A stretch of 64,000 nt of DNA from Candidatus Cloacimonadales bacterium (GTDB lineage: Bacteria > Cloacimonadota > Cloacimonadia > Cloacimonadales > JAFGVF01), in the NCBI GenBank assembly GCA_963677495.2, contig CAXXOU010000004.1, positions 672,001 through 736,000 of the forward strand, in the 5' to 3' direction. A program made the position numbers and the translations under genes. The notes under the pieces are model-generated. The model made no database searches. It worked only from the letters and a program-made list of their open reading frames with translations, and had not been told where the DNA came from. This document shows positions 39,674 through 59,502 of this stretch, in pieces; the first letter of the stretch is position 1, and the number at the start of each line of letters is the position of its first letter.

Positions 39674-40081
39674 ACCTACTCCAAACTGTCTTGAAGTAGT
39701 CATTTTTAAAGGTTGGCAGTTTTGTACCACTTTTCACTGCCATCGTGTACCATTTCTCACTGCCATTGACAGTACAGAGGAAGATTACAGTTAGGTGATA
39801 GCCCATTAATTAAAGAGATTCCTATTGTACATTCCACTACTTAGGTGGTTTTGCCCAAAAGTGCCCGAAACTCATAGGGGGGGACAGAATGAGAGAGAAA
39901 TAGGGGAATATATTTTAGCTTCGCTGAAAATGGGGGTTTAGGGGTTATAGGGAACAATTTTTATTGGCGAGAAATAATCATAGAGGGACAAAATAACGGA
40001 GAAATTTGGAGATGTTTGGCGAAGTTTGGCAATTTAATGGCAATTAGCAATTTACAGCACTACCGGGACTCGGTTCTTATA

Positions 40082-40537
40082 CTTTAGGTCAAAATGATAG
40101 AGAAATAATAGGCGACATAGGCAACAGTGATAAGCGACACTAACGCTAAGTAATTAGAAAATAATACTTTAGATAGGCGACAATATAGGCAACATACACG
40201 CTTTAGGTCAAAATGGTAGAGAAATAATAGGCGACATAGGCGACAGCGATAAGCGACACTAACGCTAAATAATCAGAAAATAATACTTTAGATAGGCGAC
40301 AATATAGGCAACATACACGCTTTAGGTCAAAATGGTAGAGAAATAATAGGCGACATAGGCGACAATATAGGCGACACACACGCTTTAGGTCAAAATGGTA
40401 GAGAAATAATAGGCGACATAGGCGACAGCGATAAGCGACACTAACGCTAAATAATCAGAAAATAATACTTTAGATAGGCGACAATATAGGCGACACACAC
40501 GCTTTAGGTCAAAATGATAGAGAAATAATAGGCGACA
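40082..40537. repeat. 119-bp tandem array (units at 40082, 40201, 40320 [63-bp deleted unit], 40383, 40502 partial) rich in RGCRACA
   Basis: ctttaggtcaaaatg recurs with spacings 119, 119, 63, 119; about 19 GGCGACA/GGCAACA/AGCGACA motifs. Confidence 0.95.
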
Positions 40538-40552
40538 CTATAACGGAACCTG

Positions 40553-41140
40553 CTATTCTATTCTGCCATGTCTCGCAGTTACCTCATATTGATAGCTACC
40601 TGATCCAGGTCTCCAAGAGTTGGAGTATCTATTTGCATCTATTGCCCAGACATGAACGCCAAAGTCAATCTCTTCATTTCCTCGTAGTGCTGCACCTTTG
40701 CATATTGTCTTAAAATCATTAGGGAACTGATTGAATCCAATGTATACATCATTGCCATCGACTGACACCCACTCTACTTCTTTTATGCTTTTTAAGTAGC
40801 TTATGGAACCTGATAAAGATTCCTTTCCGGTATTTGTCTTACTGGGGATGTTGATTGCACTGCTAACAAGCAGGATAAGTATTATACAGGTTGAGGATAC
40901 AGTGATAAGTTGTAGTTTTGAGTGTTTAGCACCACACTTAGAACAGGTGAATGTGAATATTGAATCATCACTATTATCGCACATCTTGCATTTGTTTTTT
41001 AGGAAGGGGAATGCAAATGAAAAACCTTTAACTTTCTTGGTTTCATCACCAGGTTCATCATATATAGAGGTTGTGTTGTCATAAGACTTATAAAGGAAAT
41101 AAAGAACACCTACTATGAGAATGATTAAAAACAGAGCCAT
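40553..41140 (-). CDS. Prophage membrane protein with Zn-ribbon (CxxC..CxxC), cotranscribed with the repressor
   Basis: Two TM segments, CKMC and CSKC, SD GGAGG. Confidence 0.7.
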   Translation of the reverse strand: MALFLIILIVGVLYFLYKSYDNTTSIYDEPGDETKKVKGFSFAFPFLKNKCKMCDNSDDSIFTFTCSKCGAKHSKLQLITVSSTCIILILLVSSAINIPSKTNTGKESLSGSISYLKSIKEVEWVSVDGNDVYIGFNQFPNDFKTICKGAALRGNEEIDFGVHVWAIDANRYSNSWRPGSGSYQYEVTARHGRIE

Positions 41141-41148
41141 GACACCTC

Positions 41149-41790
41149 CTACTTGAATGATCTAATTAAGTAATCCAACACTCCTATGATTCTGACATCC
41201 ATATTGTCATTGAGCTTGATTGGTTTGAATTTGAGGTTGAAAGGGAATAACCAGGCATTCTTACTTTCATGATCCAGGACAAACTTTTTGAGGGTGATAC
41301 CATCATCAATCCTAACTGCAACAACCCGGTTATCGTAGCAATCCTCTAAGCAATCCCGGTTGATGATCACAATATCATTATGCTGCACTACAGGTTTCAT
41401 ACTTGTACCATTAACCCGGAAAGCAACAAGACTCTCAACAGGCAAGGCACTGGAGACTTGAACAACACCAAGTTCATGGTCTATTGCTTCAAAAGGCTCC
41501 CCGGCTGAGATTTCAGCAGATATTGGGATTTCATTCATCTCGTGAGTTACCGGGAATGAAACTGTTGGCAATTCAGGAGAATTGAGAAGCATATTACCTT
41601 CTCCGGTTAGAAGCCAATGCAGGTTAACACTATATAGTTTACTGATTTTATGTAATAATGGCATATTGGGTTCTATGTTATTCTTCTCTAACCTACTGTA
41701 ATTGCCTTGATTTATCTCCAATACAGAAGAAATCTGCATTTGTGTAAGTCCTTGTGATAACCTTAGTTCCTTCAATCTTTTGCCAATCAT
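41149..41790 (-). CDS. CI/LexA-like phage repressor (XRE HTH + S24 peptidase)
   Basis: RLKELR...GLTQ...WLLTGEG, AG cleavage site (ISAG), VNGTSM, TLKK. Confidence 0.93.
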   Translation of the reverse strand: MIGKRLKELRLSQGLTQMQISSVLEINQGNYSRLEKNNIEPNMPLLHKISKLYSVNLHWLLTGEGNMLLNSPELPTVSFPVTHEMNEIPISAEISAGEPFEAIDHELGVVQVSSALPVESLVAFRVNGTSMKPVVQHNDIVIINRDCLEDCYDNRVVAVRIDDGITLKKFVLDHESKNAWLFPFNLKFKPIKLNDNMDVRIIGVLDYLIRSFK

Positions 41791-41800
41791 TAAAACACCT

Positions 41801-41870
41801 TTATGTAATTATTGCATAAAACATCTTGACTAATATGTAGTATTTACATATTTATGTAACTGTATCTACA
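41801..41870. promoter_or_regulatory. Divergent promoter/operator region with TATGTA-N5-TRCATA palindromes
   Basis: ttatgtaattattgcataa (41801), atatgtagtatttacatat (41833), half site at 41852, -35 TTGACT at 41826. Confidence 0.65.
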
Positions 41871-41921
41871 AAAGCAGAGAGTGAGAAAAAAGTCAAGAAG
41901 ATAAAATGAGGAGGAATCCGA

Positions 41922-42116
41922 ATGAAGAATGGAGAAGCGAAAATTGAGAAAGATCATCCACTTGAGAAGCTTAGTGATAAGCTTTGTGCTCTTGTTAGTC
42001 ATTGCGATGGAGACTGCGGATGTTGCCCTGTCGGGATAAGCAACCTTGAGAAGAATATAGAAGATGCTGGTTATATACATCGAAGCAAGTTACAGACGGA
42101 GGCACTTGATGACTAA
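41922..42116 (+). CDS. Small Cys-rich phage protein
   Basis: SD GAGGAGG; CDGDCGCCP. Confidence 0.6.
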   Translation: MKNGEAKIEKDHPLEKLSDKLCALVSHCDGDCGCCPVGISNLEKNIEDAGYIHRSKLQTEALDD

Positions 42117-42408
42117 AAGACAATTCAAATACACACCGGGACAGGTAAAGGCAGCTATTATGCTCCGAGAGGGAAAGTACTCACCTTCCTGGATTAGTTT
42201 TAAGCTACATGATCTCAGGATTGCCAAGGTTGGAGCACAGATGGTGAGTCAGGTGGTTAATGGTAACAGATTCAATTCTAAAGTTGTCGCTTGGATTGAG
42301 GAAGAGTTCGCAGATGAGTTAGCGGTTGTTAGTAAACAGGACGCAATTCCCCGAACTCCCGATGGTCGTAATGGTGACCGCTCCGATAGTGTTGGGGGTG
42401 CTGTATGA
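42109..42408 (+). CDS. Ner/Cro-like DNA-binding protein with repeat-derived C-terminal tail
   Basis: HTH-like IAKVGAQMVSQVVNGNR; position opposite the repressor. Confidence 0.55.
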   Translation: MTKRQFKYTPGQVKAAIMLREGKYSPSWISFKLHDLRIAKVGAQMVSQVVNGNRFNSKVVAWIEEEFADELAVVSKQDAIPRTPDGRNGDRSDSVGGAV

Positions 42409-42644
42409 TATATGCTTATGGTATCATTGCATTCTTACTGATTCTCTTAGTAAGAAGCTTACTGGTTGAGTTTAGGCTTCGAGGACGTTATCAAGATAAG
42501 ATTCTTGAGATTGAATCATATCGTCGTGAGATTTCACGAATCCAGCAGAAAGTCGAAAAGGCACATAGTGAGTTTATGGGTGGAAAACCTGTTACAAGCT
42601 TCTCTAGGTCATCGCAGATTAAGGCTAATGGTGGGGTGGAATGA
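42405..42644 (+). CDS. Hypothetical phage membrane protein
   Basis: N-terminal TM helix, ATGA overlap. Confidence 0.6.
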   Translation: MIYAYGIIAFLLILLVRSLLVEFRLRGRYQDKILEIESYRREISRIQQKVEKAHSEFMGGKPVTSFSRSSQIKANGGVE

Positions 42645-42994
42645 TGAAGAAAAGAACCACCATTCCCAACATCATGGAATTACGAGAGGGGAATAACGAG
42701 CGAGACACTCATTCTACAGGTAAGACTAAGAAAGAACTGAATGTGAAGCGTGAGAAGATGAGCCTTCCTGAGTTTGTAGCAGCTATAAAAGCAACTACTA
42801 AGCTCAATGTTAAGTTTACTCAAAGGGGATTCGTTACCGGGTTCAGAGAGGTTGTTTATATTCAAGTGCATTATAATCCCATTGAGGGCATGTACAAAGT
42901 GTTTATGGCAGCCGGAGAGCATTACATCGAATGGAATCACAACATCATTTTTACTAATCAAATCAGAACAATATATTCCGGATGGAGGGGATAA
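42641..42994 (+). CDS. Hypothetical phage protein
   Basis: ATGA/TAATG coupling with neighbours. Confidence 0.6.
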   Translation: MMKKRTTIPNIMELREGNNERDTHSTGKTKKELNVKREKMSLPEFVAAIKATTKLNVKFTQRGFVTGFREVVYIQVHYNPIEGMYKVFMAAGEHYIEWNHNIIFTNQIRTIYSGWRG

Positions 42995-43641
42995 TGGAAC
43001 AAGTAATAGTTAATAATGAACAAGCTATAGCTACAGAAGTATATAATCAGTTAAGAGAGAAAATAAGCACAACATGTTTAGCATCTGCAGATAGCTTAAG
43101 AATGCTACTCAATGGTTTAGGTTTTTATCATAAGAGTGAGTTTCCTGAAGCAAAAATTGAGTATTTCGAAGATCCAGGTTCAGGAGAATCAGTAGGTGTT
43201 CAGCTTGTTATTGATAATGGAAGACCATATACAGGGATTGGCAGTGACGTAGTGGACACAGTTGACGGTAGTGAACAAGAGAGTAATCCTTCAACTCAGA
43301 TCAGGAAGCCAATAGTTACAATTGATGATGAGGATATCTCAGATATGTTCTATCAACGACTTGCGATTTTGAAAGCCAATTTCGAAGTAAACCAATTAGA
43401 AGCTACAAGAGATCTAATCAAAAAAAAGGGGATATTCAAACCAGATTTCACTGTATTAGATTTCTATAGACTGAGCTCATCATCTGGTGGAGCTGCCTTA
43501 AACTTATTGAATATGGTCATTGGGGATTTGTTGGAAGACGCTGACTCAGTATCTACTTGCGAAGGTTACAATGAAGTGAACCTCCTTCCCGGTGAAGCAA
43601 ATAAGAAACAACCAAATAAAGATATATCGTCCCATCGATAA
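42994..43641 (+). CDS. Hypothetical phage protein
   Basis: SD GGAGG, TAATG coupling. Confidence 0.6.
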   Translation: MEQVIVNNEQAIATEVYNQLREKISTTCLASADSLRMLLNGLGFYHKSEFPEAKIEYFEDPGSGESVGVQLVIDNGRPYTGIGSDVVDTVDGSEQESNPSTQIRKPIVTIDDEDISDMFYQRLAILKANFEVNQLEATRDLIKKKGIFKPDFTVLDFYRLSSSSGGAALNLLNMVIGDLLEDADSVSTCEGYNEVNLLPGEANKKQPNKDISSHR

Positions 43642-43736
43642 TACGTAACCAACCCTCATGGTCTGAACCATTCGCAAGGTCAAGACCATTCCGAAGGTGA
43701 CCATGGGGGCTATTACGTATTACGATTGGAGAAAAT

Positions 43737-46163
43737 ATGAAGATTTGGAAAAGCACTAAGGAAGCTGCTGAACTGATGAACACAACCGAAAGGACAATTC
43801 AAAGACGAGCTAAGTCCGGGATGCTTGAAAGCCGGGATGGATTGAGTTCGAAAGGACGGAAAAGGCTTGAGGTACTTGTTGAGGTTGATGATCAACCTCA
43901 ACAGCCTAAAGCTGATAGTCTAGAGCCTAAAGCTGAAGGGAACCACCCCGCCGTAAGTTGCTCGCTTCCAGCTTGCGAGCTCCCTGCGGTCGGTTCACGG
44001 CACCCCTCCACAGAGGGGAATCAGGAGCAACAGCCTATAGCTGATAGCCTAAAGCCTATAGTTGAGAACCAGGGAGATGCAGGCAGGGATGCCTGCGTAC
44101 GTAGCTCAAGCGAAGGTGGACAGGACGCATCTACACAGTTGATGCACTCCAAAGACAAGCAAGCTGTATGCCCTACGGAATCAGAGGACTTTGTTGGACG
44201 GGACGCAATTCCCCGAACTCCCGTTGGTCGTAATGGTGACCGCTTCGAAATAGCAACACCTGCTGAGAAGGATGAGGAGAAAGCTTTTAAGGAATGCTCT
44301 CAATCCGAGAGGGAGCAAGCTTGGGCAAAGCTTCAGATTGTGAAGCTCTGGAATGATTTCAGATCAGCTAAGAAGGTTGAAGGTATGTCTAAGACAGAAA
44401 GCTCTAAGTTCTGGGATTCTCGCAGTAGCATTCTTGCCGGGAAACAGCTTCAGGTACTTGGGATTCAGGAAATCAAGTCTAAGACCATCTATAAGTGGAG
44501 TAAGGAACTGAAGGAATCCGGGCATATCAATTATCCGGTTGCTTTGATTCCTAACAGGCACTCATCCGGTCGCAAGAGCAAGGTTCCTGATGAAGTACTC
44601 TTCAGGATTAGGCAATTAGCTGCAGATCCCAGAGAGTTGAGAGCAAGCCATATCTATAAGATTCTTCTTAGTGAACACCCGGATAGTTTCTCTTTCCCAT
44701 GCTCCAGAAGAACAGTTACAAGGTTCGTGGCACAGGCTCGTGCTGATAGAGTACTTGTCTCACTTGGTAAAGGCAAGAAGGCTTATAAGAACAATGTGAG
44801 AGTTCATATTAAGCGTGTCAATGACAACATACCCGGAAAGCACTATGTTGGTGATGGTCGTCCTCATGACTTTATGGTATACTCTCCTTGGAGACATCAT
44901 GCTTCTGAGAATCTAAGACTCTTAGTAAGACCTTACGCAACAATGTGGGTTGATGCTGCAACCGGGTTGATTGTTGGTTATACAGCAAGCTATTCAGAAT
45001 CTACTCACACAGTTCTTAACTCCTTATCCAGAGCAATAAAAGCATGGGGAGTGCCTGAACGAATCACTGTTGATAACGGAAAATCTTACCAGAATTACTA
45101 CAATGATCCGTACTACTTCCTGAACAATCGAAAAGAGAATTCATCTCCATGGAAAAAGGCAAAGGGCTTTATAGATCAAGGTCAAGTGGGAGCATATAGA
45201 AAGGTTGGTATTGAGAAGATAACCTACTCCATTCCCGGTAATCCTGAATCAAAGCAGATTGAAGCCATCTGGAACTACGTATTTGAGGACTTTGAACGTT
45301 CACAGGCTATCTATTTAGGTAAATCACCAGAAAAGCGAATGGAAGCCCTTAATATGCCCACAATCAAGCTAATTGAGAAGTATGGGGATATGATACCTAA
45401 TTGGGACGAGTTTATTCAACAGATCAATGCAAGGATTCAGGAATGGAATAGCTCCAAGCGTGCAGTTCTTAAAAGTGCTGATGGTAATATGATGAGTCCA
45501 TTAGAGGTGATGGAATACTTCAAAGATGAAATCCAGATACCTAATCCGGGTTTCATTGATGAGTGGTTATCTGTTCCGGTGGAAGCTAAGGTTCAAAGGG
45601 ATGGAATCTACTGTGCCGGGAACTGGTACCAGCACAGGCAAAGTAAAGTCCATCTTAATAAAAAGTGCTTAGTGTTGTTTGATGAAATGGCACCTGAGAC
45701 TGCTCAGATTATGACTGAGAATGGTCAACTTTGGGAGGGCTTAGCAGAGCTTTATGTTCCCGGATCATACGTTGAAGAGGAGCAGATTCAAAAAGCAATT
45801 AGTACAGCTCGAAGTCTTGAAAAACAGGGCTTAGCAGTCTATGCAGGTGTTCGCTCTCGTATACCAGGTAAGCTTGATCAGAAAGAGGTCAATAAGATAG
45901 CTAAGAATACCGTCCTTGAAATTGAGGGTGATGCACATAAGAGACGAGAACGAATCAAAGATACAGGGAAAGAACGTCTATCAATTCCAAAAAGAAGCAA
46001 ATCACCTGAAGGTTCCGGTGTTGAACCAACACCTGACTGGAAGGAACTATTAAAAGAGATTGAAGTACCGGAAACAGAAGTGCAACCGGAAGAACCAAAG
46101 AATACAGAAGAGGATGCAATCCTCGCTACAATTGAAGGTAAATCAAATTATAGGGGGCTTTAA
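43737..46163 (+). CDS. Mu-like DDE transposase (MuA-type) with N-terminal HTH and a repeat-derived insert
   Basis: STKEAAELMNTTERTIQRRA HTH; YVGDG...WVDAATG...GVPERITVDNGKSY...PGNPESKQIE catalytic core; Mu-transposase C-terminal-like region. Confidence 0.9.
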   Translation: MKIWKSTKEAAELMNTTERTIQRRAKSGMLESRDGLSSKGRKRLEVLVEVDDQPQQPKADSLEPKAEGNHPAVSCSLPACELPAVGSRHPSTEGNQEQQPIADSLKPIVENQGDAGRDACVRSSSEGGQDASTQLMHSKDKQAVCPTESEDFVGRDAIPRTPVGRNGDRFEIATPAEKDEEKAFKECSQSEREQAWAKLQIVKLWNDFRSAKKVEGMSKTESSKFWDSRSSILAGKQLQVLGIQEIKSKTIYKWSKELKESGHINYPVALIPNRHSSGRKSKVPDEVLFRIRQLAADPRELRASHIYKILLSEHPDSFSFPCSRRTVTRFVAQARADRVLVSLGKGKKAYKNNVRVHIKRVNDNIPGKHYVGDGRPHDFMVYSPWRHHASENLRLLVRPYATMWVDAATGLIVGYTASYSESTHTVLNSLSRAIKAWGVPERITVDNGKSYQNYYNDPYYFLNNRKENSSPWKKAKGFIDQGQVGAYRKVGIEKITYSIPGNPESKQIEAIWNYVFEDFERSQAIYLGKSPEKRMEALNMPTIKLIEKYGDMIPNWDEFIQQINARIQEWNSSKRAVLKSADGNMMSPLEVMEYFKDEIQIPNPGFIDEWLSVPVEAKVQRDGIYCAGNWYQHRQSKVHLNKKCLVLFDEMAPETAQIMTENGQLWEGLAELYVPGSYVEEEQIQKAISTARSLEKQGLAVYAGVRSRIPGKLDQKEVNKIAKNTVLEIEGDAHKRRERIKDTGKERLSIPKRSKSPEGSGVEPTPDWKELLKEIEVPETEVQPEEPKNTEEDAILATIEGKSNYRGL

Positions 46164-46166
46164 GCA

Positions 46167-46862
46167 ATGAAGAGCAACGTAATAGTACCTATATTCAACA
46201 CAAGAGAAGCAGCAGCAAAAGTGAAAGAACTGCAAACAAGACCTAAGGCAGATGTTCCCGGGTTAGCCTGCATGTATGGTTGTCCCGGTCTTGGAAAGTC
46301 TTATTGGTCTGAGAGCTATGCATCACAGAACAATCACATTTGGATCAGAATGAAAGAAGCTGAAACAGCTAAGGGCTTTATGTCCAGATTGCTCAAACGC
46401 TTGGTGTATCGTGATGAAGGTCAAAACAGGAACATCTCAGGTTCAACAGATGAGATATACAAAGAGTGTGAGGAGATTCTTCAGCGTAATCCTGATTGGG
46501 TAGTGTTTATTGATGAAGTGGATAGAGCTCTTGGTGGTCGCAAAACTAAGGTTCTTGAGATGATTAGAGACCTTGCTGACTGTACTTATGCAAGCTATAT
46601 CCTGATTGGAATGGAGCATCTTCGCAGGTTAATCCAGAAGTACTCAGCTCATTATTTTGATAGATGTTACTTCTTCTATGAATTCAGACCTGCAACTTCT
46701 GAAGAGATGAAGGCGATTATAGAAGCAAAGATAGATTACAGTGCATCTGATAAGGTCGTTCAGGCAACGATGGAAAAGTCAGGTGGTACATTGCGAAAGA
46801 GTATCAAGCTCATGGTGGATATGGAGGAAGCTAGAAATGTCCGTAGAAACAGCCAAAAATAG
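46167..46862 (+). CDS. MuB-like AAA+ transposition ATPase
   Basis: GCPGLGKS, VFIDEVD, IRDLAD, ILIGM. Confidence 0.9.
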   Translation: MKSNVIVPIFNTREAAAKVKELQTRPKADVPGLACMYGCPGLGKSYWSESYASQNNHIWIRMKEAETAKGFMSRLLKRLVYRDEGQNRNISGSTDEIYKECEEILQRNPDWVVFIDEVDRALGGRKTKVLEMIRDLADCTYASYILIGMEHLRRLIQKYSAHYFDRCYFFYEFRPATSEEMKAIIEAKIDYSASDKVVQATMEKSGGTLRKSIKLMVDMEEARNVRRNSQK

Positions 46863-47274
46863 ACTCAGAGACTTCGCTGTGATGAATGAAACTCCCTTCA
46901 CAATCTCCAGAGCTGCATTAGTTACCGGATACAGTATGTCCTGTGTATCCAGGAACCTTGCTGTTCTTAAGAAAGAGGGGTTTGTGCGTGAAATCGAAAC
47001 CGGAACAAGATTCAAGTCCTTTGTAGTAGAGAAAGAGATTCTACCTAAGAAAATGGAGCAGTTAACGGAACGTGTGTTCACTGAGATCCAGAATCAGAAT
47101 TTTGTAAGTAAAGAGATAGCTGAAAAGCTTAAGTGCAGTGTGGATAGAGTTTATAGGTGCCTTAAAGTACTTGAGCGTAGAGGAAGGGTAGAGGTTATCG
47201 TTAAGAAGAATGGCAAGATTACTGTGGCAAGACTTCCTAAGTATGATGCCATCCCGGAGGTAAGTAATGTCTAA
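46837..47274 (+). CDS. Tandem winged-HTH DNA-binding protein
   Basis: TISRAALVTGYSMSCVSRNLAVLKKEG; SKEIAEKLKCSVDRVYRCLKVLERRG. Confidence 0.75.
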   Translation: MSVETAKNRLRDFAVMNETPFTISRAALVTGYSMSCVSRNLAVLKKEGFVREIETGTRFKSFVVEKEILPKKMEQLTERVFTEIQNQNFVSKEIAEKLKCSVDRVYRCLKVLERRGRVEVIVKKNGKITVARLPKYDAIPEVSNV

Positions 47275-47608
47275 CGTAGTTAAGGACGTACTCCAGAAGG
47301 CTATTGATACCAGGCAACGCAAGTTGGATAAGATAATTGAAGAGCAAGAGCATGATTGGTTCGAAGATATGAAGGCTGAGAGAGAGCGATATAATGAGTA
47401 TGTAAAGAAGTTCAACTCAAGCACCGTAGAGCAAAAACTGGAGCTAATAGATGAGGTCTTAAAGCAAAATCAAATCACTCAGAAAGCATATCAACTATGG
47501 ATCAAAGATAGAGGTTATCTCTGGGATAAACGTGCTGTGATTGAGAAAGAGGTTAGCAAACTAAAAAATGCTTTATATATACTTACACACAGAGGTTACC
47601 ATGAATAA
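47267..47608 (+). CDS. Hypothetical phage protein
   Basis: SD GGAGG, coupled ORF. Confidence 0.6.
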   Translation: MSNVVKDVLQKAIDTRQRKLDKIIEEQEHDWFEDMKAERERYNEYVKKFNSSTVEQKLELIDEVLKQNQITQKAYQLWIKDRGYLWDKRAVIEKEVSKLKNALYILTHRGYHE

Positions 47609-47972
47609 AGAACAATATGCTAAGAATCTCCGTAGTAGGATAGTAGCAAATATAAAGCACAATTTCAATGTAGATCACCATGAGTTACTGGAGGAGTGGG
47701 GATACGGTTCCTCACTCCGGAAAATTCGGGATATAGATGTCCTGAAGGAGATCCTCTTTGTGGCTCAAGGTGGAACAATTCAAAGTCAGAGCATAGGCTC
47801 TCTGGATGAGCAGGGACGCTATGCGTGGGCTCTTATGAAAGAAGCAGGTTGGGATACTCGCAGATTGAGATCCCTGATGATCAAGAAGTGTGGTGTTGGT
47901 ACTTGGAAGCAACTCTCTACTTCAGAGAAAAAGCAAGTGATACAGATACTGAAGAGCTATCAGCAGAGCTGA
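47601..47972 (+). CDS. GemA/gp16-like Mu protein
   Basis: AWALMKEAGWD..RLRSLM...LSTSEKKQVIQILKS resembles the GemA C-terminus. Confidence 0.6.
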   Translation: MNKEQYAKNLRSRIVANIKHNFNVDHHELLEEWGYGSSLRKIRDIDVLKEILFVAQGGTIQSQSIGSLDEQGRYAWALMKEAGWDTRRLRSLMIKKCGVGTWKQLSTSEKKQVIQILKSYQQS

Positions 47973-48069
47973 AATGTTTAATTATGAATGCAAAATGATG
48001 AATGAAAAGAACCACCCCACCGTTTCCAACGGCACCCCTCCACAGAGGGGAATTAAGATAGGAGGATAG

Positions 48070-48255
48070 ATGGAAGTTAGCGTTTGGAACATAGTTTACT
48101 CAGGAGCAGATGACAAAGATGTCACTGTCAGTGTAATAGCAGAAGATTTCGAGAAAGTAGCAGCATACATCCATACAAAGGTGTGGGCAACCACGGTGAA
48201 GGATGTGTACTATAATGGACGGATGGATTGTTTGATTAAGGATTTTAGAGGATAG
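48070..48255 (+). CDS. Hypothetical phage protein
   Basis: SD GGAGG. Confidence 0.55.
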   Translation: MEVSVWNIVYSGADDKDVTVSVIAEDFEKVAAYIHTKVWATTVKDVYYNGRMDCLIKDFRG

Positions 48256-48256
48256 T

Positions 48257-48463
48257 ATGGCAAAAGAGCAACAAGAGGACTGGATAGTTACTCAAAAGGA
48301 AGAGGACGACGCTCTGAAAGCACGGAAGGAGTCTGCATTTATGGAGATGCTATTTGCTAGTGCTGAGCCGGAACAGTATAAGAAAAGCTTAGCTGAACAG
48401 AAACAGAAGCAAACAGAGACTAATAGAGATAAACAGGGTTCGAACCCTGCTGGTAAGGAGTAA
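48257..48463 (+). CDS. Hypothetical phage protein
   Basis: SD GAGG. Confidence 0.5.
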   Translation: MAKEQQEDWIVTQKEEDDALKARKESAFMEMLFASAEPEQYKKSLAEQKQKQTETNRDKQGSNPAGKE

Positions 48464-48467
48464 AAAT

Positions 48468-49109
48468 ATGGCTAACTTAGTGAAAATCAAAGGTAAGAAT
48501 CACTGGATTAATGCTGAAGGTAATCCGGTAGAAGTATCACGTATATTCCCTGAAGAGAAAGCCAGGGAAAGAGTTGTACATAAGGTGTTTAAAAAGGTCT
48601 CTAGAACTTCTGTTGTGCTTAAGAAAGCTCATGAAGAGATCTGGAATACAGTCGATGATTATCTTCAAAAGTTAGCTGAAGAGCATGGTGAGACTTGGCA
48701 AGGTAATGCACAGATCATGTCATTTGATCAAACACAAAAGATTGATGTCAAAGTGACAAAGTACATCGGATTCAACGAGCATTTCCAGTTAGCTGAGAAG
48801 AAGATTCTTCGCTTTATCGAAGAGGTGACTGAAGGTCTTAATGGTGATGTTGTGGAGTTGATTCGTGGTGCCTTTCAACGAGATAAGAAAGGTCAAATTG
48901 ATTCCAAGAAGATCCTTGGTTTAAAGAGACTTAATATCAAATCTAAGATCTGGGCTGAAGCTATGGAGTTGATTGATAAGTCTATCTACGTGAAGAGTTC
49001 AAAGCGTTATATCAACTTCTATATCCGTGATCAGGATGGTAAGTGGGAAGTTGTTCCTCTTAACTTCAGTGCTTTGAAGGTTGTGGAGGTTGAAGATGAA
49101 AAAGAGTAA
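48468..49109 (+). CDS. DUF3164 family protein (typical of Mu-like phages)
   Basis: WINAEG..V, GN..IMSFD, AFQRDKKGQI...LGLKRL...WAEAM...SKRYINFY..PLNF. Confidence 0.85.
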   Translation: MANLVKIKGKNHWINAEGNPVEVSRIFPEEKARERVVHKVFKKVSRTSVVLKKAHEEIWNTVDDYLQKLAEEHGETWQGNAQIMSFDQTQKIDVKVTKYIGFNEHFQLAEKKILRFIEEVTEGLNGDVVELIRGAFQRDKKGQIDSKKILGLKRLNIKSKIWAEAMELIDKSIYVKSSKRYINFYIRDQDGKWEVVPLNFSALKVVEVEDEKE

Positions 49110-49509
49110 ACAGAGACCTGCAGGGACTGACAAAGACATTCAGGAGCAGAAGAAGTGGACTGCGAAGTACTTCAAGCGTGAAGAGTTTGCTTGTACTTGT
49201 TGTGGAGAAGTGAAGATAGACCAGGAAATGGTGAATATGTTAGATTATGCAAGACGCATTGCTAAGACACCATTCTCAATCAATTCCGGTTATCGTTGTC
49301 CTAAGCACAATGCTGAAGTTGGAGGAAAGGAGACTTCAAGCCATTTAAAGGGCTATGCTGTGGATATTAAAGTAACATCAATGAGAAGCAGATTCAAGAT
49401 ACTATCTGCTTTGATGGATGCAGGCTTTGAGCGTATCGGTATCGCTAAGACCTTTATTCATGTGGACAATGATCCTGATAAGGGTCCTGAAGTTATTTGG
49501 ATGTATTGA
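49096..49509 (+). CDS. Peptidase M15 (D-Ala-D-Ala carboxypeptidase fold), probable endolysin
   Basis: YFKREEFACTCCG, INSGYRCPKHNAEVGG..SSHLKGYAVDI, FIHVD. Confidence 0.9.
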   Translation: MKKSKQRPAGTDKDIQEQKKWTAKYFKREEFACTCCGEVKIDQEMVNMLDYARRIAKTPFSINSGYRCPKHNAEVGGKETSSHLKGYAVDIKVTSMRSRFKILSALMDAGFERIGIAKTFIHVDNDPDKGPEVIWMY

Positions 49510-49510
49510 T

Positions 49511-50248
49511 ATGACAAAAGAACAAGCTCAAGAGAAGATAAGTAAACTTCTGAAGCTTTCAGAATCTCCTAATCAAAATGAAGCCTTCGCAGCTCTTGCG
49601 AAGGCTCAGGAGATTGCTTTGAAGTTTGGGTTGGAGATGAAAAAACTCAAAGCTGAAGTTCTTGAAAAGACGATTCAATCACATTATAAAAACTTTCCGA
49701 AATGGTATCGACTTCTTCTTAGCGTTATTGCTCAGCACTTTAGATGTCGAGAGATGACAGTTCAAGGGTATAAACCGTGTACTGAATTTAGCGTACGAGG
49801 AAGTAAGTCCACACAAGTAAAGGTAGATGAAATCATCTTTATCGGTATGCCAAGTGATGTTGATATAGCAACTCAGTGTCTCCAATATAGCGTTAACTCA
49901 ATGAATAAGCTTTGGAGTGATTGGTATGAAGGCTATTCGAAAGGTACTAATACTGCAGTAAAAAGAACTAAAGAATGGAAAAACTATGTCTCGAAAGTTA
50001 AAAGGAATTATCGAGAAGGCTTTGGCATGGGGTTGAACGATGTTCTAACTCAGAACGAAGAACAGTATGGACTTGTAGTTGTTATCCCCTCCGAGGTTGA
50101 AGACTATTGCTCCGAAATGCATTCTGATGTTAGAATTTTAAAAGCAAGACAATCAAATGGAGAACTCATCAGCCAAGCTTATCGCAAAGGTTATAAAGAT
50201 GGATCTCAAACGAAACCTGAAACTATGCACACTATGATAGGTGGTTAG
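49511..50248 (+). CDS. DUF2786 domain protein
   Basis: EKISKLLKLSESPNQNEAFAALAKAQEIALKFGL. Confidence 0.85.
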   Translation: MTKEQAQEKISKLLKLSESPNQNEAFAALAKAQEIALKFGLEMKKLKAEVLEKTIQSHYKNFPKWYRLLLSVIAQHFRCREMTVQGYKPCTEFSVRGSKSTQVKVDEIIFIGMPSDVDIATQCLQYSVNSMNKLWSDWYEGYSKGTNTAVKRTKEWKNYVSKVKRNYREGFGMGLNDVLTQNEEQYGLVVVIPSEVEDYCSEMHSDVRILKARQSNGELISQAYRKGYKDGSQTKPETMHTMIGG

Positions 50249-50876
50249 AATGGCATTTCCTCGTGAGTTGTATGATGCATTGGCTGATTCAATCGGTAAG
50301 GATGTTGTGGATGGGAAGATCCGCAACCTTCTTACCCGGTTGAAGAAGAAAGCTGAGTCCGGTGAAGCACCTAAGCTAAATGAGCTTGAGGTTGCACGGG
50401 ATGTGATTCGTTTCTTTAATCAGGAGACCGGGGGAGCAATATCTGAGAAATCAGCTACTGCTCTCCGGTTGATTCGTTGTAGATTGAAAGATGGGTATAG
50501 TGCAGAAGATTTAAAGCACGTTGTGAGCTATAAAAACAAGCACTGGAAGGGAAACTCAGAGATGAAGGGGTTCATACGCCCTTTGACTCTGTTTGGCACG
50601 AAATTCGAGGGTTATTTGAGTGAGTATTCAAGATGGGAACAGGGACGTTCAAGGACTTGCACAGACAGGCAAGGACAACACCCCACCGTTTCCAACGGCA
50701 CCCCTCTACAAGAGGGGAATAAGCTTGATTGGAGATATGAGACAAATCTGGAACGGTTCGAAAGGATTCAAAGAGAAAGAGCTGAAGGTAAGGATCCTAA
50801 TCCTTCAGCTTTGAAGATTGATAAGAAAACAGGGAAAGTAATAAAAGAGGATATGGATGGCAGCAGAACTATTTAA
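50241..50876 (+). CDS. Phage protein with conserved phage C-terminal (Phg_2220_C, replication-organiser-like) domain
   Basis: IRCRLKDGYSAEDLKHVV...W...MKGFIRPLTLFGTKFEGYL. Confidence 0.8.
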   Translation: MVRMAFPRELYDALADSIGKDVVDGKIRNLLTRLKKKAESGEAPKLNELEVARDVIRFFNQETGGAISEKSATALRLIRCRLKDGYSAEDLKHVVSYKNKHWKGNSEMKGFIRPLTLFGTKFEGYLSEYSRWEQGRSRTCTDRQGQHPTVSNGTPLQEGNKLDWRYETNLERFERIQRERAEGKDPNPSALKIDKKTGKVIKEDMDGSRTI

Positions 50877-51063
50877 GAGAGATAGGTTGTATTCAGTTAA
50901 AGAGATTGCAGAGAAGCTTGATGTGTCAGAGAAAACTATTACCAGGGAGATTAACAACCCTGATACCGTACTTAAGAGTCACAAGATTCGTAGGACTGTG
51001 AGAGTTACAGGAGCTAGCTTAATAACTTATATGAAGAACTGTGAAATGGAGCCTTGGAAATGA
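50857..51063 (+). CDS. HTH_17 (excisionase-like) DNA-binding protein, possible late regulator
   Basis: LYSVKEIAEKLDVSEKTITREI...KIRRTVRV. Confidence 0.8.
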   Translation: MAAELFKRDRLYSVKEIAEKLDVSEKTITREINNPDTVLKSHKIRRTVRVTGASLITYMKNCEMEPWK

Positions 51064-52382
51064 GTGAGAGAATATACGATAAGTACATGAATGAGCTGTA
51101 TTTGGTTCTGAACAATACTTGGAAGAAGCAAGTCAAGAAAGCTGCACGTGATGCGATTGTTGAGCTCAGCTCTCTACCTGCAAGCCAGAAACCTGATAAT
51201 GAGTTTGTGGAAGAGATGATGCAGAATACTGTTAATCGCTTAACTACTGAGCTTGAAGGTGAGGTTGCTCCACAGGTTAGGAAGATCAATGAGAAGTGTT
51301 ATAGAATGGCTGGTGCTGACACTCAGAAGCCTTTGAATATCTCTGTTGGACTTTATGGCAACAAGCAGAAGGTGACAGTTGAGAAGGTTAATACTCAGAA
51401 CCTCTTCTGGATCAGGAAACACTTTGGAGCAGAGATTCAAGATAAACTGAAGGTCTCTTTAGCTGAAGCTCTTGATAAGGGTTACTCTGTACGTGAGTTT
51501 GGTGATGTGCTCAAAGGGCAGTTTAATAACCTGAATCAGAGCTCTCATTACTGGCGTGGTTTTGCCAATAATGCTATTGCCAGGACAAAGACGATTGGAT
51601 CTATTGAAGCAATGGAAAGGCATAAGATTGAGAAAGCTAAGATTGTGGCAAGGATGGATGATAGAACTACTGATATCTGCAGAGAGCTTAATGGCAGGAT
51701 CATTGAAGTTTCCCACATGATCGAAGCTAAGAATAAGATGCTTGATATTAAGACTGAAGGTAGATCTACTGAGGATGTTAAAGCTGAGATTCAAGCAGTA
51801 GCTCCCTTCTTCAGAAATGCAGATCAGATTAGAGGGAAGTCCACCAGAGAGATACAGTCTAAAGGAACCGGGGTTGGTATGCCACCATATCATTGGGGTT
51901 GCAGAACCAGGATCATTGCCTGGGTTGATGAGTTTGATGATCCCGGTGCTGTTACTCCCGGAAGTAACTCAGACCCTAATGACAAATATGCTAAGAACTT
52001 GACTCAAACAGAGATGCTTGAAAAGTGGAATGGAGTTAAGAGCAAGAGATATCCAACGTTCTCTGATGGTGATTTAGAGAGTGATTGGAAGAAACATGGT
52101 CAAAGAGAGTTTGGTTTCACAGATAAACGTGAGTATATCCAAAAAGCCAGGGACATATACAACAATGCAGATAGAGTGACATGCAGGACTTTTAAGGGAC
52201 AACTTCAATTCCAAGTATACAGCTTTGAGCAGAAGGGATATGTTGTTGTTGACACTAATAGCATAATCAGAGGTTGCTATGGACATTCAAAACCAGGTGG
52301 GACTGAGAATGCATATAACTATTACAAGAAACATTACTATGAGATAACACAACCGGAGGAAAAATGGCGGGACGTGAACTAA
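51060..52382 (+). CDS. MuF (SPP1 gp7-like) minor head protein with C-terminal toxin-like extension
   Basis: MDDRTTDICRELNG...PPYHWGCRT, then about 140 aa with WKKHGQREFG...YIQKA. Confidence 0.85.
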   Translation: MSERIYDKYMNELYLVLNNTWKKQVKKAARDAIVELSSLPASQKPDNEFVEEMMQNTVNRLTTELEGEVAPQVRKINEKCYRMAGADTQKPLNISVGLYGNKQKVTVEKVNTQNLFWIRKHFGAEIQDKLKVSLAEALDKGYSVREFGDVLKGQFNNLNQSSHYWRGFANNAIARTKTIGSIEAMERHKIEKAKIVARMDDRTTDICRELNGRIIEVSHMIEAKNKMLDIKTEGRSTEDVKAEIQAVAPFFRNADQIRGKSTREIQSKGTGVGMPPYHWGCRTRIIAWVDEFDDPGAVTPGSNSDPNDKYAKNLTQTEMLEKWNGVKSKRYPTFSDGDLESDWKKHGQREFGFTDKREYIQKARDIYNNADRVTCRTFKGQLQFQVYSFEQKGYVVVDTNSIIRGCYGHSKPGGTENAYNYYKKHYYEITQPEEKWRDVN

Positions 52383-52627
52383 CTTATCAAGAGATTTTTC
52401 AAGAGCTTAATGAGCCTTTAAAGATGGACAGTTACTTGAATATGTGCATGAATATGGAGCATGAAGAAGGTTTAGTTGGGAATGAAGAGTTTAGAAAGAT
52501 CCTAAAGCAAAAGAAGAAGTTGATCATGAGTGATGAGCCTAAAGAGTTAACTCGTATGCTTAAGGGTTGGCGTGAGGAACATGACACTCCGAGAGACCAC
52601 TATTGGTGGTGGATTGATCAGTTATAA
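52364..52627 (+). CDS. Small protein overlapping the MuF 3' end, candidate immunity protein
   Basis: 87 aa, SD GGAGG, ends PRDHYWWWIDQL. Confidence 0.6.
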   Translation: MAGRELTYQEIFQELNEPLKMDSYLNMCMNMEHEEGLVGNEEFRKILKQKKKLIMSDEPKELTRMLKGWREEHDTPRDHYWWWIDQL

Positions 52628-52628
52628 G

Positions 52629-52655
52629 AAAAGCCCCGGTTGACCGGGGCTTTTT
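52629..52655. terminator. Bidirectional terminator
   Basis: aaaagccccgg-ttga-ccggggcttttt between convergent genes. Confidence 0.9.
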
Positions 52656-52689
52656 AACTATAAAGACTTAGTCTTAACGAAAGCAAATA

Positions 52690-53238
52690 CTACAATGAAA
52701 CAACTTCTCTTGCTCCTAAGTGACTATCTAATTGTAACTCAATATCCCTAGGATCAACAACATTAAAAAGAAGCTTTACTTTGTTAAAGTCTGAGTCAAA
52801 AGTATATAATATTGGTTTATCATCCATGACAGGGCTATCAATTTGCTTTTGTGACATTTTCGAGTAAACAGAAGAAGCAATATATCCGTCAGCCTTTATG
52901 CAAGATCTGCATTTACTAGCTTGCCCAGAGAATGATTTCGGGATTACTCTGCTACACATCTCTGCTTGCTTTAAGCCAAACTCAACAACCGTAAACATCT
53001 TAGTCAGGATTTCTGCTAGTCTAGCCTGTTTTTCTACAGGAACAAGTATCAGAAGTTCACTATATGAAATCGTAGATATACAGAAGTTGTATTGATCTTT
53101 TGCATTTTCATCTTTCAACTTCTTAAGCAACGCTAATGCTGACTCTTTCATCTCTTGTTCACTTTCATTCTTGGGAGCATCACCTCTAATAGCCCATATA
53201 AGGAAGCATGTATCAAAAAAAATGTTATTCTTCTTCAT
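52690..53238 (-). CDS. PIN-domain (VapC-like) ribonuclease
   Basis: FFDTCFLI, ISTISYSEL, ADGYIAS, LYTFDSDF acidic tetrad. Confidence 0.85.
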   Translation of the reverse strand: MKKNNIFFDTCFLIWAIRGDAPKNESEQEMKESALALLKKLKDENAKDQYNFCISTISYSELLILVPVEKQARLAEILTKMFTVVEFGLKQAEMCSRVIPKSFSGQASKCRSCIKADGYIASSVYSKMSQKQIDSPVMDDKPILYTFDSDFNKVKLLFNVVDPRDIELQLDSHLGAREVVSL

Positions 53239-53259
53239 AAAACCCTCAGTATTAAAATA

Positions 53260-53973
53260 TTAATGTATATGAGCACCAAACTCTTTGATAAGTAAGTCAA
53301 AACCTTCATCAAGGGATATTTTATCATTCCTGTAATAATCAGTGAGTTCTAACATATTTACTTTATTGTTTTTCAATTCTCTACTATTATCTGTAACGAT
53401 ATAGGTTCCCTGAACTAATCCACTTATCACTAAGTTAGAGTATAAATGCTGAGCTAGCTCTATAGCCATATCTTTATCTATTTCTGCCTTTATCTCTAAA
53501 TTGTCGGAATTTCTAAATGTAGCTAAATGTTTAACATGACCTCCAACAGATTCTAAAACAACTTGATGTGTGGAATACTCTTTGAAATCTAGATATGAAA
53601 CTTCGCTTACTGGAGGATAATCAACTTCCGTAAGCTGCTTGAATGGTTTGTTGTAGTCTTCTAGGATGAAACAAGAAGTAGCACCATGCTTACTGTTAAT
53701 AGCCGACAATTCACTCAAGTCAGAATTTGATGTTTTTGCAATTCCATTAACGAGAAGTAAAGCAAAAGCAGTAGCCACACTAAATGTGAACCTAGCACAA
53801 CAATCTGTTAACTCACAAAGTTTAATTTCAGCTGATTGTCCCAGTTCATTGTTATGGTTAACTGAGGTAACTTGTTTGTTAATTGTTTTAAGGACTGTAA
53901 TGACTTCTTCCAGGTCTAGTTCGGAAAGCTTTGCTGGTGAATCAATAATATAATCAAATTTTGTGAAAGCCAT
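53260..53973 (-). CDS. Hypothetical protein upstream of the PIN gene (putative antitoxin/sensor)
   Basis: SD GGAGG, ATG 53973; AT-rich and antisense to the phage operons. Confidence 0.65.
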   Translation of the reverse strand: MAFTKFDYIIDSPAKLSELDLEEVITVLKTINKQVTSVNHNNELGQSAEIKLCELTDCCARFTFSVATAFALLLVNGIAKTSNSDLSELSAINSKHGATSCFILEDYNKPFKQLTEVDYPPVSEVSYLDFKEYSTHQVVLESVGGHVKHLATFRNSDNLEIKAEIDKDMAIELAQHLYSNLVISGLVQGTYIVTDNSRELKNNKVNMLELTDYYRNDKISLDEGFDLLIKEFGAHIH

Positions 53974-54197
53974 ACCTCCTCCATAATATGATTTTAACAC
54001 TAAATAGACAAAATTTCTTTTAACTTAAAAAACGACATGTCTAGTCAAACTGACAGTGACATTTATGTCAACCGTTTTGTTCTTGTACGTACAGTGACAA
54101 TAATAAAGTTTTGTGGACTGGAGGGGACTGGAGGGTTTGACGGAGTGTTGTTTTGCAAGGAAAATACCTTTAGAATAGAAACATTCGGAGGTATAGA

Positions 54198-54683
54198 ATG
54201 GCTGGAGTTATTCCATTAACAGTAGAACGGATAGTTAACCTTACAGGTTTGAACGGTTCGTTGAAGAGTAATCCGTTATGGGTACCACACCACACTGCGG
54301 CAGTCGCTGAGTTGGAAAAGTATCTGTATCCGGAATATTGCGATTACCTGGAGACCGGGGTTAGTGAGACGTATGAATCTCATGAGGCAACCTTGGGAGA
54401 AATGGCTGCTGCTATGTTTACTCTTAAACGAGTAATGCCTTTGATGAATCTGAATACAGTTGGTTCCGGGTTTGTACAGAAGACCGGGATTGATGCTGAC
54501 TCTACTGAGATCCTTTCTCATGACAGTTTAGGCAAGTATATCAAAACAATTGAATATCAAGCCCTTCTTACTATTGAACCTTATCTTAATGACTTAGGGT
54601 TACAGAGACTCAAACAGCTTAATACAACTCCAAAGCAAGCGATTAAAGCGATGCTTATTGTGAATGAGGATAACTTAGCATGA
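54198..54683 (+). CDS. Putative head-tail adaptor/virion protein
   Basis: SD GGAGG; first gene of the late cluster; size and position only. Confidence 0.45.
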   Translation: MAGVIPLTVERIVNLTGLNGSLKSNPLWVPHHTAAVAELEKYLYPEYCDYLETGVSETYESHEATLGEMAAAMFTLKRVMPLMNLNTVGSGFVQKTGIDADSTEILSHDSLGKYIKTIEYQALLTIEPYLNDLGLQRLKQLNTTPKQAIKAMLIVNEDNLA

Positions 54684-55138
54684 ACGGTGAACTCTTTGCT
54701 CGAATGATAGAAACTCAGCTCATCAACAGGTTTGATAAGTTAGGTGTGTTTTTGTCAGGACAAGTCTATGATGAAGCAACTAACCAGGGCATTGCTGCTT
54801 CAGGCAAGTTCTTGGAAAATGTGGGCTACTCGGTCGAAAGACAGGGAACATTACTTACACTACACCTTGGATCCAATGTAGAATATGAGAAGTACATATT
54901 CGGTGGTAAGGTTCCCTCCTGGACTCCAACTGATGCACTTATCCCATGGGTGAAGCAGAAGGGATTGCAGTGGGTTGATCAGAATGGGAAAGAGATGTCA
55001 GCTAAGCAGATGGCGTTCCTAATCGCAAGAAAGCATTCACGTGTAGGTATTAAGGGTCGCAATGTCGTACAGCAGGTTATGAAGAAGCGTGAGAGCTGGA
55101 TAATATCACAACTGGAAAACTTAGAGGTGGATGTATGA
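54680..55138 (+). CDS. HK97 gp10-like / virion morphogenesis protein
   Basis: SGKFLENV...GSNVEYEKYI..G...LIPWVKQKG...AFLIARK...GIKGR. Confidence 0.65.
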   Translation: MNGELFARMIETQLINRFDKLGVFLSGQVYDEATNQGIAASGKFLENVGYSVERQGTLLTLHLGSNVEYEKYIFGGKVPSWTPTDALIPWVKQKGLQWVDQNGKEMSAKQMAFLIARKHSRVGIKGRNVVQQVMKKRESWIISQLENLEVDV

Positions 55139-55548
55139 AACAAATCATAGCAATAAAAGCAGATGTATTGAAGGCTGTTGGGAGTGTTATTCCCTCTGCG
55201 AACATCTACACAAAGAGTACTATCATTCCGAAAACATATCCTACTGCGATGGTTGTTTCTACCGGGTTTAATCCTGATGGAACAAGAACCAGTCAGATGA
55301 AGGGTACCTACAGGTTCAACATCTACACAATTGTTGATGCTACTGACTACGATAAAACAGGAGACCAGTGGACTGCAGAGACTCCGGATCCTGAAGACAA
55401 TCTGTGGGATCTAATCCTCAAGATTGAAGAACAGCTATCAGATAGAGCACACAATATCACCAGTATTGATATTTATCCCGGTGTTGCTTCCGGTGGGAAA
55501 GAAACACTAATAGCTAAAGTAGGATTGGAGATAAAGGGCAAGTTATGA
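55135..55548 (+). CDS. Putative tail terminator/completion protein
   Basis: Position and YPTAMV pattern. Confidence 0.45.
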   Translation: MKQIIAIKADVLKAVGSVIPSANIYTKSTIIPKTYPTAMVVSTGFNPDGTRTSQMKGTYRFNIYTIVDATDYDKTGDQWTAETPDPEDNLWDLILKIEEQLSDRAHNITSIDIYPGVASGGKETLIAKVGLEIKGKL

Positions 55549-56732: not shown

Positions 56733-56863
56733 TGAATGGCAGGATGTCCAAGAAGCTGCGTAAGGACGCACGCAAAGCAATTAGGGAGCTACGAGAAATG
56801 CCCTTTAAGTGGAGATTACTTGTAGCAGGATTTATTCTATTTGGAAGAAAACACTACCGATAG
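56732..56863 (+). CDS. Small basic 43-aa phage protein
   Basis: SD GGAGG, TAATG coupling; MNGRMSKKLRKDARKAIRELREMPFKWRLLVAGFILFGRKHYR. Confidence 0.5.
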   Translation: MNGRMSKKLRKDARKAIRELREMPFKWRLLVAGFILFGRKHYR

Positions 56864-56872
56864 GAGGAACAA

Positions 56873-58891: not shown

Positions 58892-58957
58892 CCTATAAAC
58901 TCACGGGATTAGCGAGTCACACTTCGTTGCGACTCACTTCTCCCGGTTGGAGGAATT

Positions 58958-59494
58958 ATGAAACGATTTATTAATGTGCTGTTGATAGTTATGGTTCTGG
59001 GAATGGTTGCAATGCCAGCTTTGGCTGCAGACGCATTTCCCCAAGCTCCTGATGTCGCACAGGTGACTGCTTCTGAAGAACATACAAGTGTACCTTGGGT
59101 TGCAATTTCAGGCTGGGTCATATTTGTCCTTGTAGCGGGGTTCTTCGCTTGGAAGAAATTCGTTAACAAGCAGGCTTTATCTCAATCTGAAGTTGATATG
59201 ATCTGCGATATGCTACCAGGTAAGAATGCAAGTTGGAGACCAATTGTTGAAAGGTTTGTGACTGCTATCTATGCAACTGAGGATTCCCATCGAGGGAAGA
59301 AGGGATATCAGAAAGCAGAGATAGCAACAAGAGCAGCCCTGGATATGTTGAAGTATGACGCAAAAGTCAATGACAGTAAAGTTAGCAAGCTCCTTAAAAC
59401 TGTAACCGGTGGGGCTAAAACCATCACTTCTGTGGCTTTTAATGCTTTAGTTAGTAATGGAGCCCAACAGCTTGTGAAAAGCATCAAATTTTAG
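58958..59494 (+). CDS. Phage membrane protein (holin-like)
   Basis: Signal peptide plus TM helix; KKGYQKAEIA pattern. Confidence 0.5.
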   Translation: MKRFINVLLIVMVLGMVAMPALAADAFPQAPDVAQVTASEEHTSVPWVAISGWVIFVLVAGFFAWKKFVNKQALSQSEVDMICDMLPGKNASWRPIVERFVTAIYATEDSHRGKKGYQKAEIATRAALDMLKYDAKVNDSKVSKLLKTVTGGAKTITSVAFNALVSNGAQQLVKSIKF

Positions 59495-59502
59495 GGGGAA
59501 AT

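Follow-up and report, generated by a model that had tools for sequence, protein, structure and literature searches.

One question raised by the window analysed here, a stretch of 64,000 nucleotides from a Candidatus Cloacimonadales bacterium (host genome G000, G000:C4:672001-736000), is how the transposase gene of its Mu-like prophage came to carry, between an N-terminal helix-turn-helix (HTH) and a conserved core, a segment resembling palindromic repeats of the host, and whether an earlier note on this DNA was right to see there a mosaic of host repeats translated in frame. The segment is indeed a mosaic of seven host repeat families in a single open frame, and in this and related prophages nearly all the repeats keep one strand along the phage axis. 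The gene in question is the following:

43737..46163, + strand: MuA-like DDE transposase of 808 aa, with an HTH (aa 1-52), a hypervariable linker (aa ~53-175) and a conserved core.

The open reading frame (ORF) 43737-46163 runs uninterrupted through 43899-44250, as had been claimed. An alignment of 25 homologues shows no variation at residues D373, D446 and E509; the Pfam rve and Mu DDE_2 matches were weak and below cut-off, and the HTH_17 match was also weak. One short-read unitig, from the same sample as the assembly, covers 42349-44233 with no differences, which indicates that the linker is not a misassembly. No linker variants were detected in four DNA runs, all from this one sample.

The linker was searched with profiles trained on host copies alone. 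The seven families, designated here by letters, occupy 222 of its 354 nt (E, expectation value):

43944..44021, + strand: family B, split by M in its first hairpin loop; profile match 43995-44021, E 0.0015.
43954..43992, + strand: family M hairpin, nested in B; profile match 43955-43991, E 0.0078.
44032..44063, + strand: family A, tandem heptamer array, with 21 matches beyond the linker at up to 6 mismatches.
44077..44100, + strand: family C hairpin, GTAC-type tag on the minus strand, E 0.0056.
44119..44154, + strand: family E repetitive extragenic palindrome (REP), GGAG tag on the minus strand, E 2e-8.
44156..44177, + strand: family F hairpin, GTAG tag (host consensus) on the minus strand, E 0.0058.
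44203..44246, + strand: family G REP, E 7e-13.

Comparison of the sequence with host B copies places M inside the first loop of B, and this nesting gives the order of the two events. Family M has 26 profile matches in the genome. Its exact pattern occurs only in the linker among 232 genomes, and M was considered as a foreign repeat; this was dropped because a looser pattern occurs in the host (17 matches, all intergenic, against 2 in the control). None of the family A matches at up to 6 mismatches lies in an ORF, and the controls gave none; the array at 44032-44059 is one of 22 in the genome, the other 21 being intergenic, with 0 in the reversed-genome control. The modules differ from host copies by 0 to 4 mismatches: the 43-nt G copy has an identical copy in the host, and the best host match to the C copy has 3 mismatches in 23.

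Some details proposed earlier have to be changed. The gccctacg module is confirmed as part of family F (44156-44177), whereas the first heptamer stretch (43901-43937) gave no matches at 7 mismatches, and the link of cgtagctca to 36030 and 36111 found no support; this string resembles family D (31 copies), below significance. The two strongest modules (E and G), M, and the one-way polarity described below had been missed. The segment is polar instead of low in complexity, with 72% disorder-promoting residues against 57% in the core, and composition and alignment suggest that it is disordered.

The host origin of the modules is evident from the distribution of their families. Among 639 host copies, 633 are intergenic, 4 lie at a gene edge, 2 in the first 15 codons and none deeper, as expected from the intergenic origin that had been proposed. 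In contrast, 10 of the 13 prophage copies lie inside genes (four genes), one of them binned near the start by the gene caller, a purpose-built codon model and not a standard annotator, and located at about residue 25 of a longer ORF. The coding DNA compared amounts to 2.81 Mb in the host and 27 kb in the prophage. The prophage copies outside the linker are the following:

42341..42383, + strand: family G copy, in frame, near the C-terminus of a small early ORF (42109-42408).
43664..43698, + strand: family H copy, intergenic, upstream of the transposase gene, same polarity.
48008..48055, + strand: family B copy, intergenic, same polarity.
50676..50722, + strand: family B copy, in frame in ORF 50250-50876 (Phg_2220_C).
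58903..58944, + strand: family I copy, intergenic, same polarity.
59031..59076, + strand: family G copy, in frame in ORF 58958-59494, E 2e-9.

The B copy at 50676..50722 has a 44-nt identical host copy and the I copy a 34-nt one. ORF 42109-42408 has XRE-like look-alikes at 0.91, which give a candidate identity. Since the families had been chosen from the prophage, an unbiased 15-mer scan was also carried out; in host genes it returned a single non-hairpin motif, present in 11 segments, as against 501 intergenic segments. The non-hairpin motif, 18-24 nt and identical, is found in 11 long, mostly secreted-looking host proteins (e.g. C1:175088, C1:976074, C4:346075), and 350 other intergenic segments represent further host repeat families.

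Clusters that mix families are frequent in the host (87 of 268), and the linker could thus be a single capture of a ready-made mosaic, a cluster resembling a bacterial interspersed mosaic element (BIME). This is now scarcely credible and, as far as this host goes, mostly disproved: the linker set or order recurs in none of 301 host clusters, the best of which holds 4 of the 7 families; one-stranded clusters make up only 10 of the 83 that have at least three members; and the modules stand at unequal distances from their host copies, between 0 and 4 mismatches.

Homologues of the transposase bear on the variability of the site. Matches were found in 22 of 61 genomes (this host included) and mostly start at residue 170-180 or later; one homologue carries the label Candidatus Cloacimonadota from its source. 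The closest homologue, P0005, shares 42, 16 and 54% identity in HTH, linker and core, in agreement with the hypervariability that had been predicted. A word-index search gave only three distant matches beyond the query, viral contigs gave none, and the matches listed from annotated phages (15 of 104 records) reached only 21-24% against the core. Related prophages, whose comparison had also been proposed, carry recurring repeats with other cassettes at the same site: seven transposases from G007-G009 hold differing B, C and J cassettes at one position with the frame kept. The homologue of ORF 50250-50876 in G001 lacks the B copy in the alignment, and filled and empty alleles both occur. The linker module of another host, G013, has 72 matches within the G013 genome. 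No linker cassette is conserved, and the peptides vary in family and frame.

The earlier note had also claimed that only frame-preserving insertions survive. Among 16 clean indels, the repeat-bearing ones were multiples of three nucleotides in 4 of 5 cases within genes and in 1 of 5 between genes, the exception within genes being the J event once more, compared with a less closely related partner. Frame filtering is therefore upheld, on few events. Direct repeats of 0-12 bp flank the indels with no fixed duplication, unlike classical miniature inverted-repeat transposable elements (MITEs). Repeat cassettes are also polymorphic in the interdomain linkers of a reverse-strand fusion of Portal_Mu, Mu_F and PBECR2 (L046:2038-4824 and L060:231-2618), and the linker of L066 (G069) contains in frame a stretch that by eye resembles the T-arm and 3' end of a tRNA.

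A second property of these insertions is their polarity. It was counted in 13 prophage stretches, with limits taken from shared BLAST extents (G001, G013 and G004a by hand), since no TG..CA ends could be assigned with certainty in the related prophages. Within these limits, 155 of 156 repeat matches lie on one strand per family. The left-to-right strand holds B (47/47), C (70/70), J (20/21, one reversed), G (3/3) and seven single matches, and D (8/8) lies on the opposite strand of its own profile. Outside the limits the strands split 5 to 8, and in the host flanks of ten prophages 11:10. Flank skews, which are noisy, suggest that, with respect to the host fork, the prophages are found in either direction.

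Transcription does not set this polarity. Six related stretches contain a reverse-strand block that includes the Portal_Mu/Mu_F fusion, a real gene, and the phage-axis strand was kept by 16 of 16 matches inside reverse-strand genes and 16 of 16 between them (32/32); a transcription-linked origin was thus rejected. Stop-codon content was also rejected as the cause, the open frames being similar on both strands except in I and F. Opposite-strand doublets in the host point tag-out in 43 of 44 cases, as in REPINs and BIMEs, and no such doublets occur in the prophages; for C, E, G, H and I, the prophage top strand is therefore the inverse (iREP) one. The cluster order of D, judged by eye, points the same way, as do the tags of F and M, and the single matches to K and L have no independent orientation.

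The nature of the families bears on the enzymes that may have moved them. In the host they are multicopy, short and extragenic, as are REPs associated with RAYTs (REP-associated tyrosine transposases). A 5' tetranucleotide tag followed by a folded stem is present in C, E, F, H and I (GTAC, GGAG, GTAG, GAAG), weak in G and absent in B and A. The genome has 14 Y1 matches, and E, G, H and I each flank particular Y1 genes: the E gene at G000:C2:265320 has 8 E copies within 350 bp, and the G gene at G000:C3:76655 lies between G copies of both orientations. None of the 14 was seen to be flanked by A, B, C, F or M. Family B flanks a DUF559 nuclease gene (G000:C4:951119), so that two or more enzyme classes are represented among the repeats of the mosaic. 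A small GIY-YIG gene has one D copy 118 bp upstream, on one side only. The Y1 gene in the window (3782-4279, region 3560-4500) was rejected as the agent; it is flanked by its own inverted repeat family, unrelated to those of the linker, and no linker family occurs within 600 bp. The earlier proposal of a RAYT as mobiliser stands in part, since E and G flank other Y1 genes, and fails as regards a single RAYT, since B flanks DUF559 and the window gene has its own repeat.

In G006 (L129:5010-8921 and 489-2060), a type I HsdR protein has an in-frame DUF559 domain flanked by five B copies, also in frame, and HsdM has one in-frame B copy, in what looks like a nuclease-plus-repeat cassette inserted within a protein.

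Our preferred explanation, to which we give about an even chance of being correct, is serial single-strand capture during phage replication followed by a frame filter. The region between HTH and core would be unconstrained as protein, its peptide being presumably neutral, and would offer a safe landing site. Hairpin repeats of several host repeat-nuclease systems, Y1/RAYT (E, G), DUF559 (B) and others not attributed, would have been captured there one after another at short microhomologies, sometimes within or beside an earlier repeat, and only insertions keeping the frame would persist, as the phage cannot do without its transposase. Strand specificity along the left-to-right axis would apply to capture or to retention, most likely because directional replication of the phage exposes one strand to enzymes acting on single-stranded hairpins. 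Should the left end be preferred, the tagged strand would be the nascent lagging strand, as expected for small single-stranded pieces taken at microhomologies.

Several published observations fit these steps. TnpA-REP is described as strand-specific on single-stranded DNA, binding the tagged strand only, in the part of PMC8266576 available, which treats REP dissemination as unresolved. The available text of PMC6006769 names lagging-strand single-stranded DNA as a main source for related enzymes, that of PMC3334882 states that Mu forks form at the ends, and that of PMC3333891 considers REP integration a recombination with a target already carrying a REP. An excess of G at fourfold sites of the top strand in the prophages of G005, G007, G008 and G009 (+0.20 to +0.30, flanks -0.11 to +0.16) is consistent with left-to-right replication.

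Other observations weigh against serial capture. This prophage and G004b show hardly any fourfold-site skew (+0.03 and -0.03, respectively), and the G004a stretch gave no repeat matches. Related prophages share inherited insertions, and the 156 matches represent far fewer events; the in-gene frame count comes down to about three independent ones. The polarity of B is ambiguous from host doublets (2:2), and heptamer A and a weak D-like stretch of the linker appear opposite in polarity. One-strand clusters in the host show neither replichore bias (69:88) nor transcription bias (40:48), so that the chromosome gives no sign of a simple fork rule. Beside the G006b prophage, a type I restriction locus contains in-frame B copies in both orientations. 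The B or C profiles trained on G000 match 9 of 37 other transposase loci, a count in which several loci lack the N-terminus and the families of other hosts were left unscored. The indel junctions have no fixed signature, and slippage would fit them too. Mu replication prefers its left end according to general background. The accessible parts of PMC10052514 and PMC3334882 do not state this preference.

Some of these points lead to another explanation, namely that few landings occurred and were multiplied in the phage pool by slippage, unequal recombination and insertion of REPs next to REPs, the polarity being inherited from the founders. The variable microhomologies (0-12 bp) and tandem units agree with it, composite cassettes are closest to other prophage sites, and the linker B variant is exact at prophage position 48009 and in other prophages while being 4 mismatches from any host copy. 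On the contrary, the G, B and I copies identical to the host over 34-44 nt suggest fresh arrivals, these lie up to 15 kb apart with a polarity common to all, and at least six families whose polarity is defined by doublets or clusters agree. We consider founder copying possible, though rather unlikely.

The polarity data would also fit if repeats arrived in both orientations and host single-strand nucleases (RAYT, Ssn-like GIY-YIG, DUF559) cut the exposed active strand, leaving the inverse one; on this view the repeats would be one element of an arms race over defence. SsnA cuts its own hairpin on single-stranded DNA (PMC11893778, in the part available), a bait-like role of the REPIN-RAYT system is mentioned as a suggestion in the accessible text of 10.1101/2024.07.17.603846, and the D copy lies close to a GIY-YIG gene. 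The host, however, tolerates hundreds of copies on both strands, and purging alone leaves unexplained the repeat density of related prophages, 8.5-fold that of their flanks (142 matches in 319 kb against 21 in 400 kb, with B, C and J profiles trained on prophage DNA). Such purging therefore seems improbable. The same densities bear on the earlier claim that the phage is repeatedly targeted, which the relatives suggest and this genome does not, its intergenic repeat density being 0.85 per kb in the prophage and 1.12 per kb in the host.

Selection of the hairpins or of the new peptide for tuning transposase expression or activity was also weighed. Repeats are concentrated in the transposase linker of several lineages, and the motif arrays in homologue linkers, described below, co-vary with the HTH, so that the DNA may act in cis. 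Nevertheless, no cassette is conserved, peptide family and frame vary, and an orientation independent of the transcribed strand argues against a role in the mRNA; we regard this co-option as very unlikely.

Partial parallels to this case are known. The hairpins with a 5' tetranucleotide tag, the tag-out doublets and the mixed clusters resemble the REP/BIME/REPIN and TnpA-REP systems (PMC3333891, PMC8266576 and PMC6006769, as far as their available text goes), and the Y1 genes with cognate repeats beside them (E, G, H, I) resemble RAYT systems. Unlike REPs and REPINs, the present repeats sit within phage genes without breaking the frame and follow one another head to tail on one strand, with no doublets; the accessible part of 10.1101/2021.07.10.451892 describes REPINs as inherited vertically and, with very few exceptions, extragenic. 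Intragenic GTAG/CGTC REPs form in-frame palindromic inserts (PMC3733652), and in-frame clusters coding for 43-82 aa are described in Thauera and R. conorii in the available text on these and on Rickettsia palindromic elements (PMC3733652, PMC10969869). Those cases concern host genes; here the target is a prophage, host genes are free, seven families take part and polarity follows the phage axis. The Rickettsia elements are palindromes of ~150 bp that encode a conserved peptide and often occur in host genes, and the present units measure 22-45 bp, are read in several frames and never lie deep in host genes. The word 'phage' is absent from the text of PMC3733652 and four text supplement files, although such genes may yet appear in tables available as images. 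Nucleases of the Ssn (GIY-YIG) kind with their hairpin motif on either side (PMC11893778, in its accessible part) recall B around DUF559 and perhaps D beside the GIY-YIG gene. Transposable phages of Pseudomonas insert beside REP-like hotspots (PMC5977238, available part); here the REPs are inside the phage. No report of transposable phages colonised by REPs was found in titles and abstract openings, most subscription journals being outside this coverage. In-frame REPs and clusters of 43-82 aa are thus already known; what is unusual here is the polarity, the combination of enzyme classes and the difference from host genes. A phage that gathers REPs on one strand, whatever the direction of transcription, provides a strand rule and a testable in vivo system (E. 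coli, phage Mu and TnpA-REP) for how REPs spread, as well as a case of new protein sequence built from non-coding repeats in an essential phage gene. We know of no activity of DUF559 proteins on such repeats, and no paper naming this domain appeared among the literature matches listed.

If phages take up host repeats, they may also carry them, a possible route for horizontal movement of repeat families that the earlier note had raised. The linker C variant occurs at up to 1 mismatch in G046 (10 copies), G050 (8), G003 (1) and G012 (1) among 232 genomes, and G046 and G050 belong to another family than the host. In G009, 14 of 22 matches to the B pattern lie inside prophages, and in G004 4 of 6 do (hand count against prophage limits), and the linker B variant recurs exactly in other prophages. 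Spread by phage is suggestive only, and the G, B and I copies identical to those of this host show, as judged by sequence identity, what is probably recent local uptake.

The transposase linkers of several homologues (L002, L003, L004, L011, L014, L015, L025, L030, L068, L072) contain a tandem DNA motif that co-varies with the recognition helix of the HTH: KT[IV]RR goes with tggaca in 6 of 7 cases, RT[IV]QRR with cgaca in 2 others and QA[VL]xK with caacc in 3 of 3, counts uncorrected for kinship. The present transposase has an RTIQRR helix and no motif array in its linker. A matching array is found near the left end of the prophage:

40082..40537, + strand: 16 GCGACA direct motifs, a candidate enhancer-like binding array predicted for the transposase HTH.

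This interval contains 13 of the 58 GGCGACA copies of the genome, and GCGACA matches the helix-motif pattern of the homologues. G013 has an array of 24 similar units upstream of its transposase. In phage Mu, MuA acts with an enhancer (the internal activation sequence, IAS). The linker arrays and the GCGACA array possibly represent an enhancer-like recognition code, and an enhancer-like element written into the transposase gene would leave the peptide unconstrained. A tentative extension is that Mu-like phages are directional collectors and cross-host carriers of REP-type repeats belonging to several unrelated nuclease systems, with replication polarity fixing the strand. Their linker would be a log of past hosts, free to vary as the translated array for the phage's own HTH, the array lying here near the left end. 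Such phages would record in vivo how REPs spread. This may be so, and we judge it somewhat doubtful.

The assignment of the prophage itself follows from its DDE transposase, AAA ATPase and Mu-type structural genes:

39826..64000 in the window, + strand: Mu-like prophage, likely left TG at 39826 and likely right CA at 70291 (window numbering).

The likely right end lies 6.3 kb beyond the window, with a 5-bp duplication (CCTAT). These ends are one of three TG..CA candidates with identical flanks, show 11 of 25 inverted matches, and were picked as lying just outside the outermost phage genes, gene content also being used. A MuB-like AAA/TniB gene lies 3' of the transposase gene, and genes for an S24 repressor, DUF3164, Mu_F and a portal protein lie around it. 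The DDE transposase and the MuB-like ATPase are as in Mu, and the candidate TG..CA ends with their 5-bp duplication would be; the HTH_17-like N-terminus, the long variable linker and the S24-type repressor are not. A Terminase_6N search gave no matches and missed the prophage's own terminase, and further prophages may be present in the genome.

Two identical IS21-like insertion elements (510-aa and 243-aa ORFs) occupy 27215-29480 and 37465-39730, and one of them stops ~55 bp short of the likely left end of the prophage. Their read depth far exceeds that of the prophage, which indicates that the element is present in high copy number. Within the prophage, the region 52690-54000 contains two reverse-strand genes of lower GC content, coding for 182 aa (PIN-like by eye) and 246 aa, that are possibly cargo.

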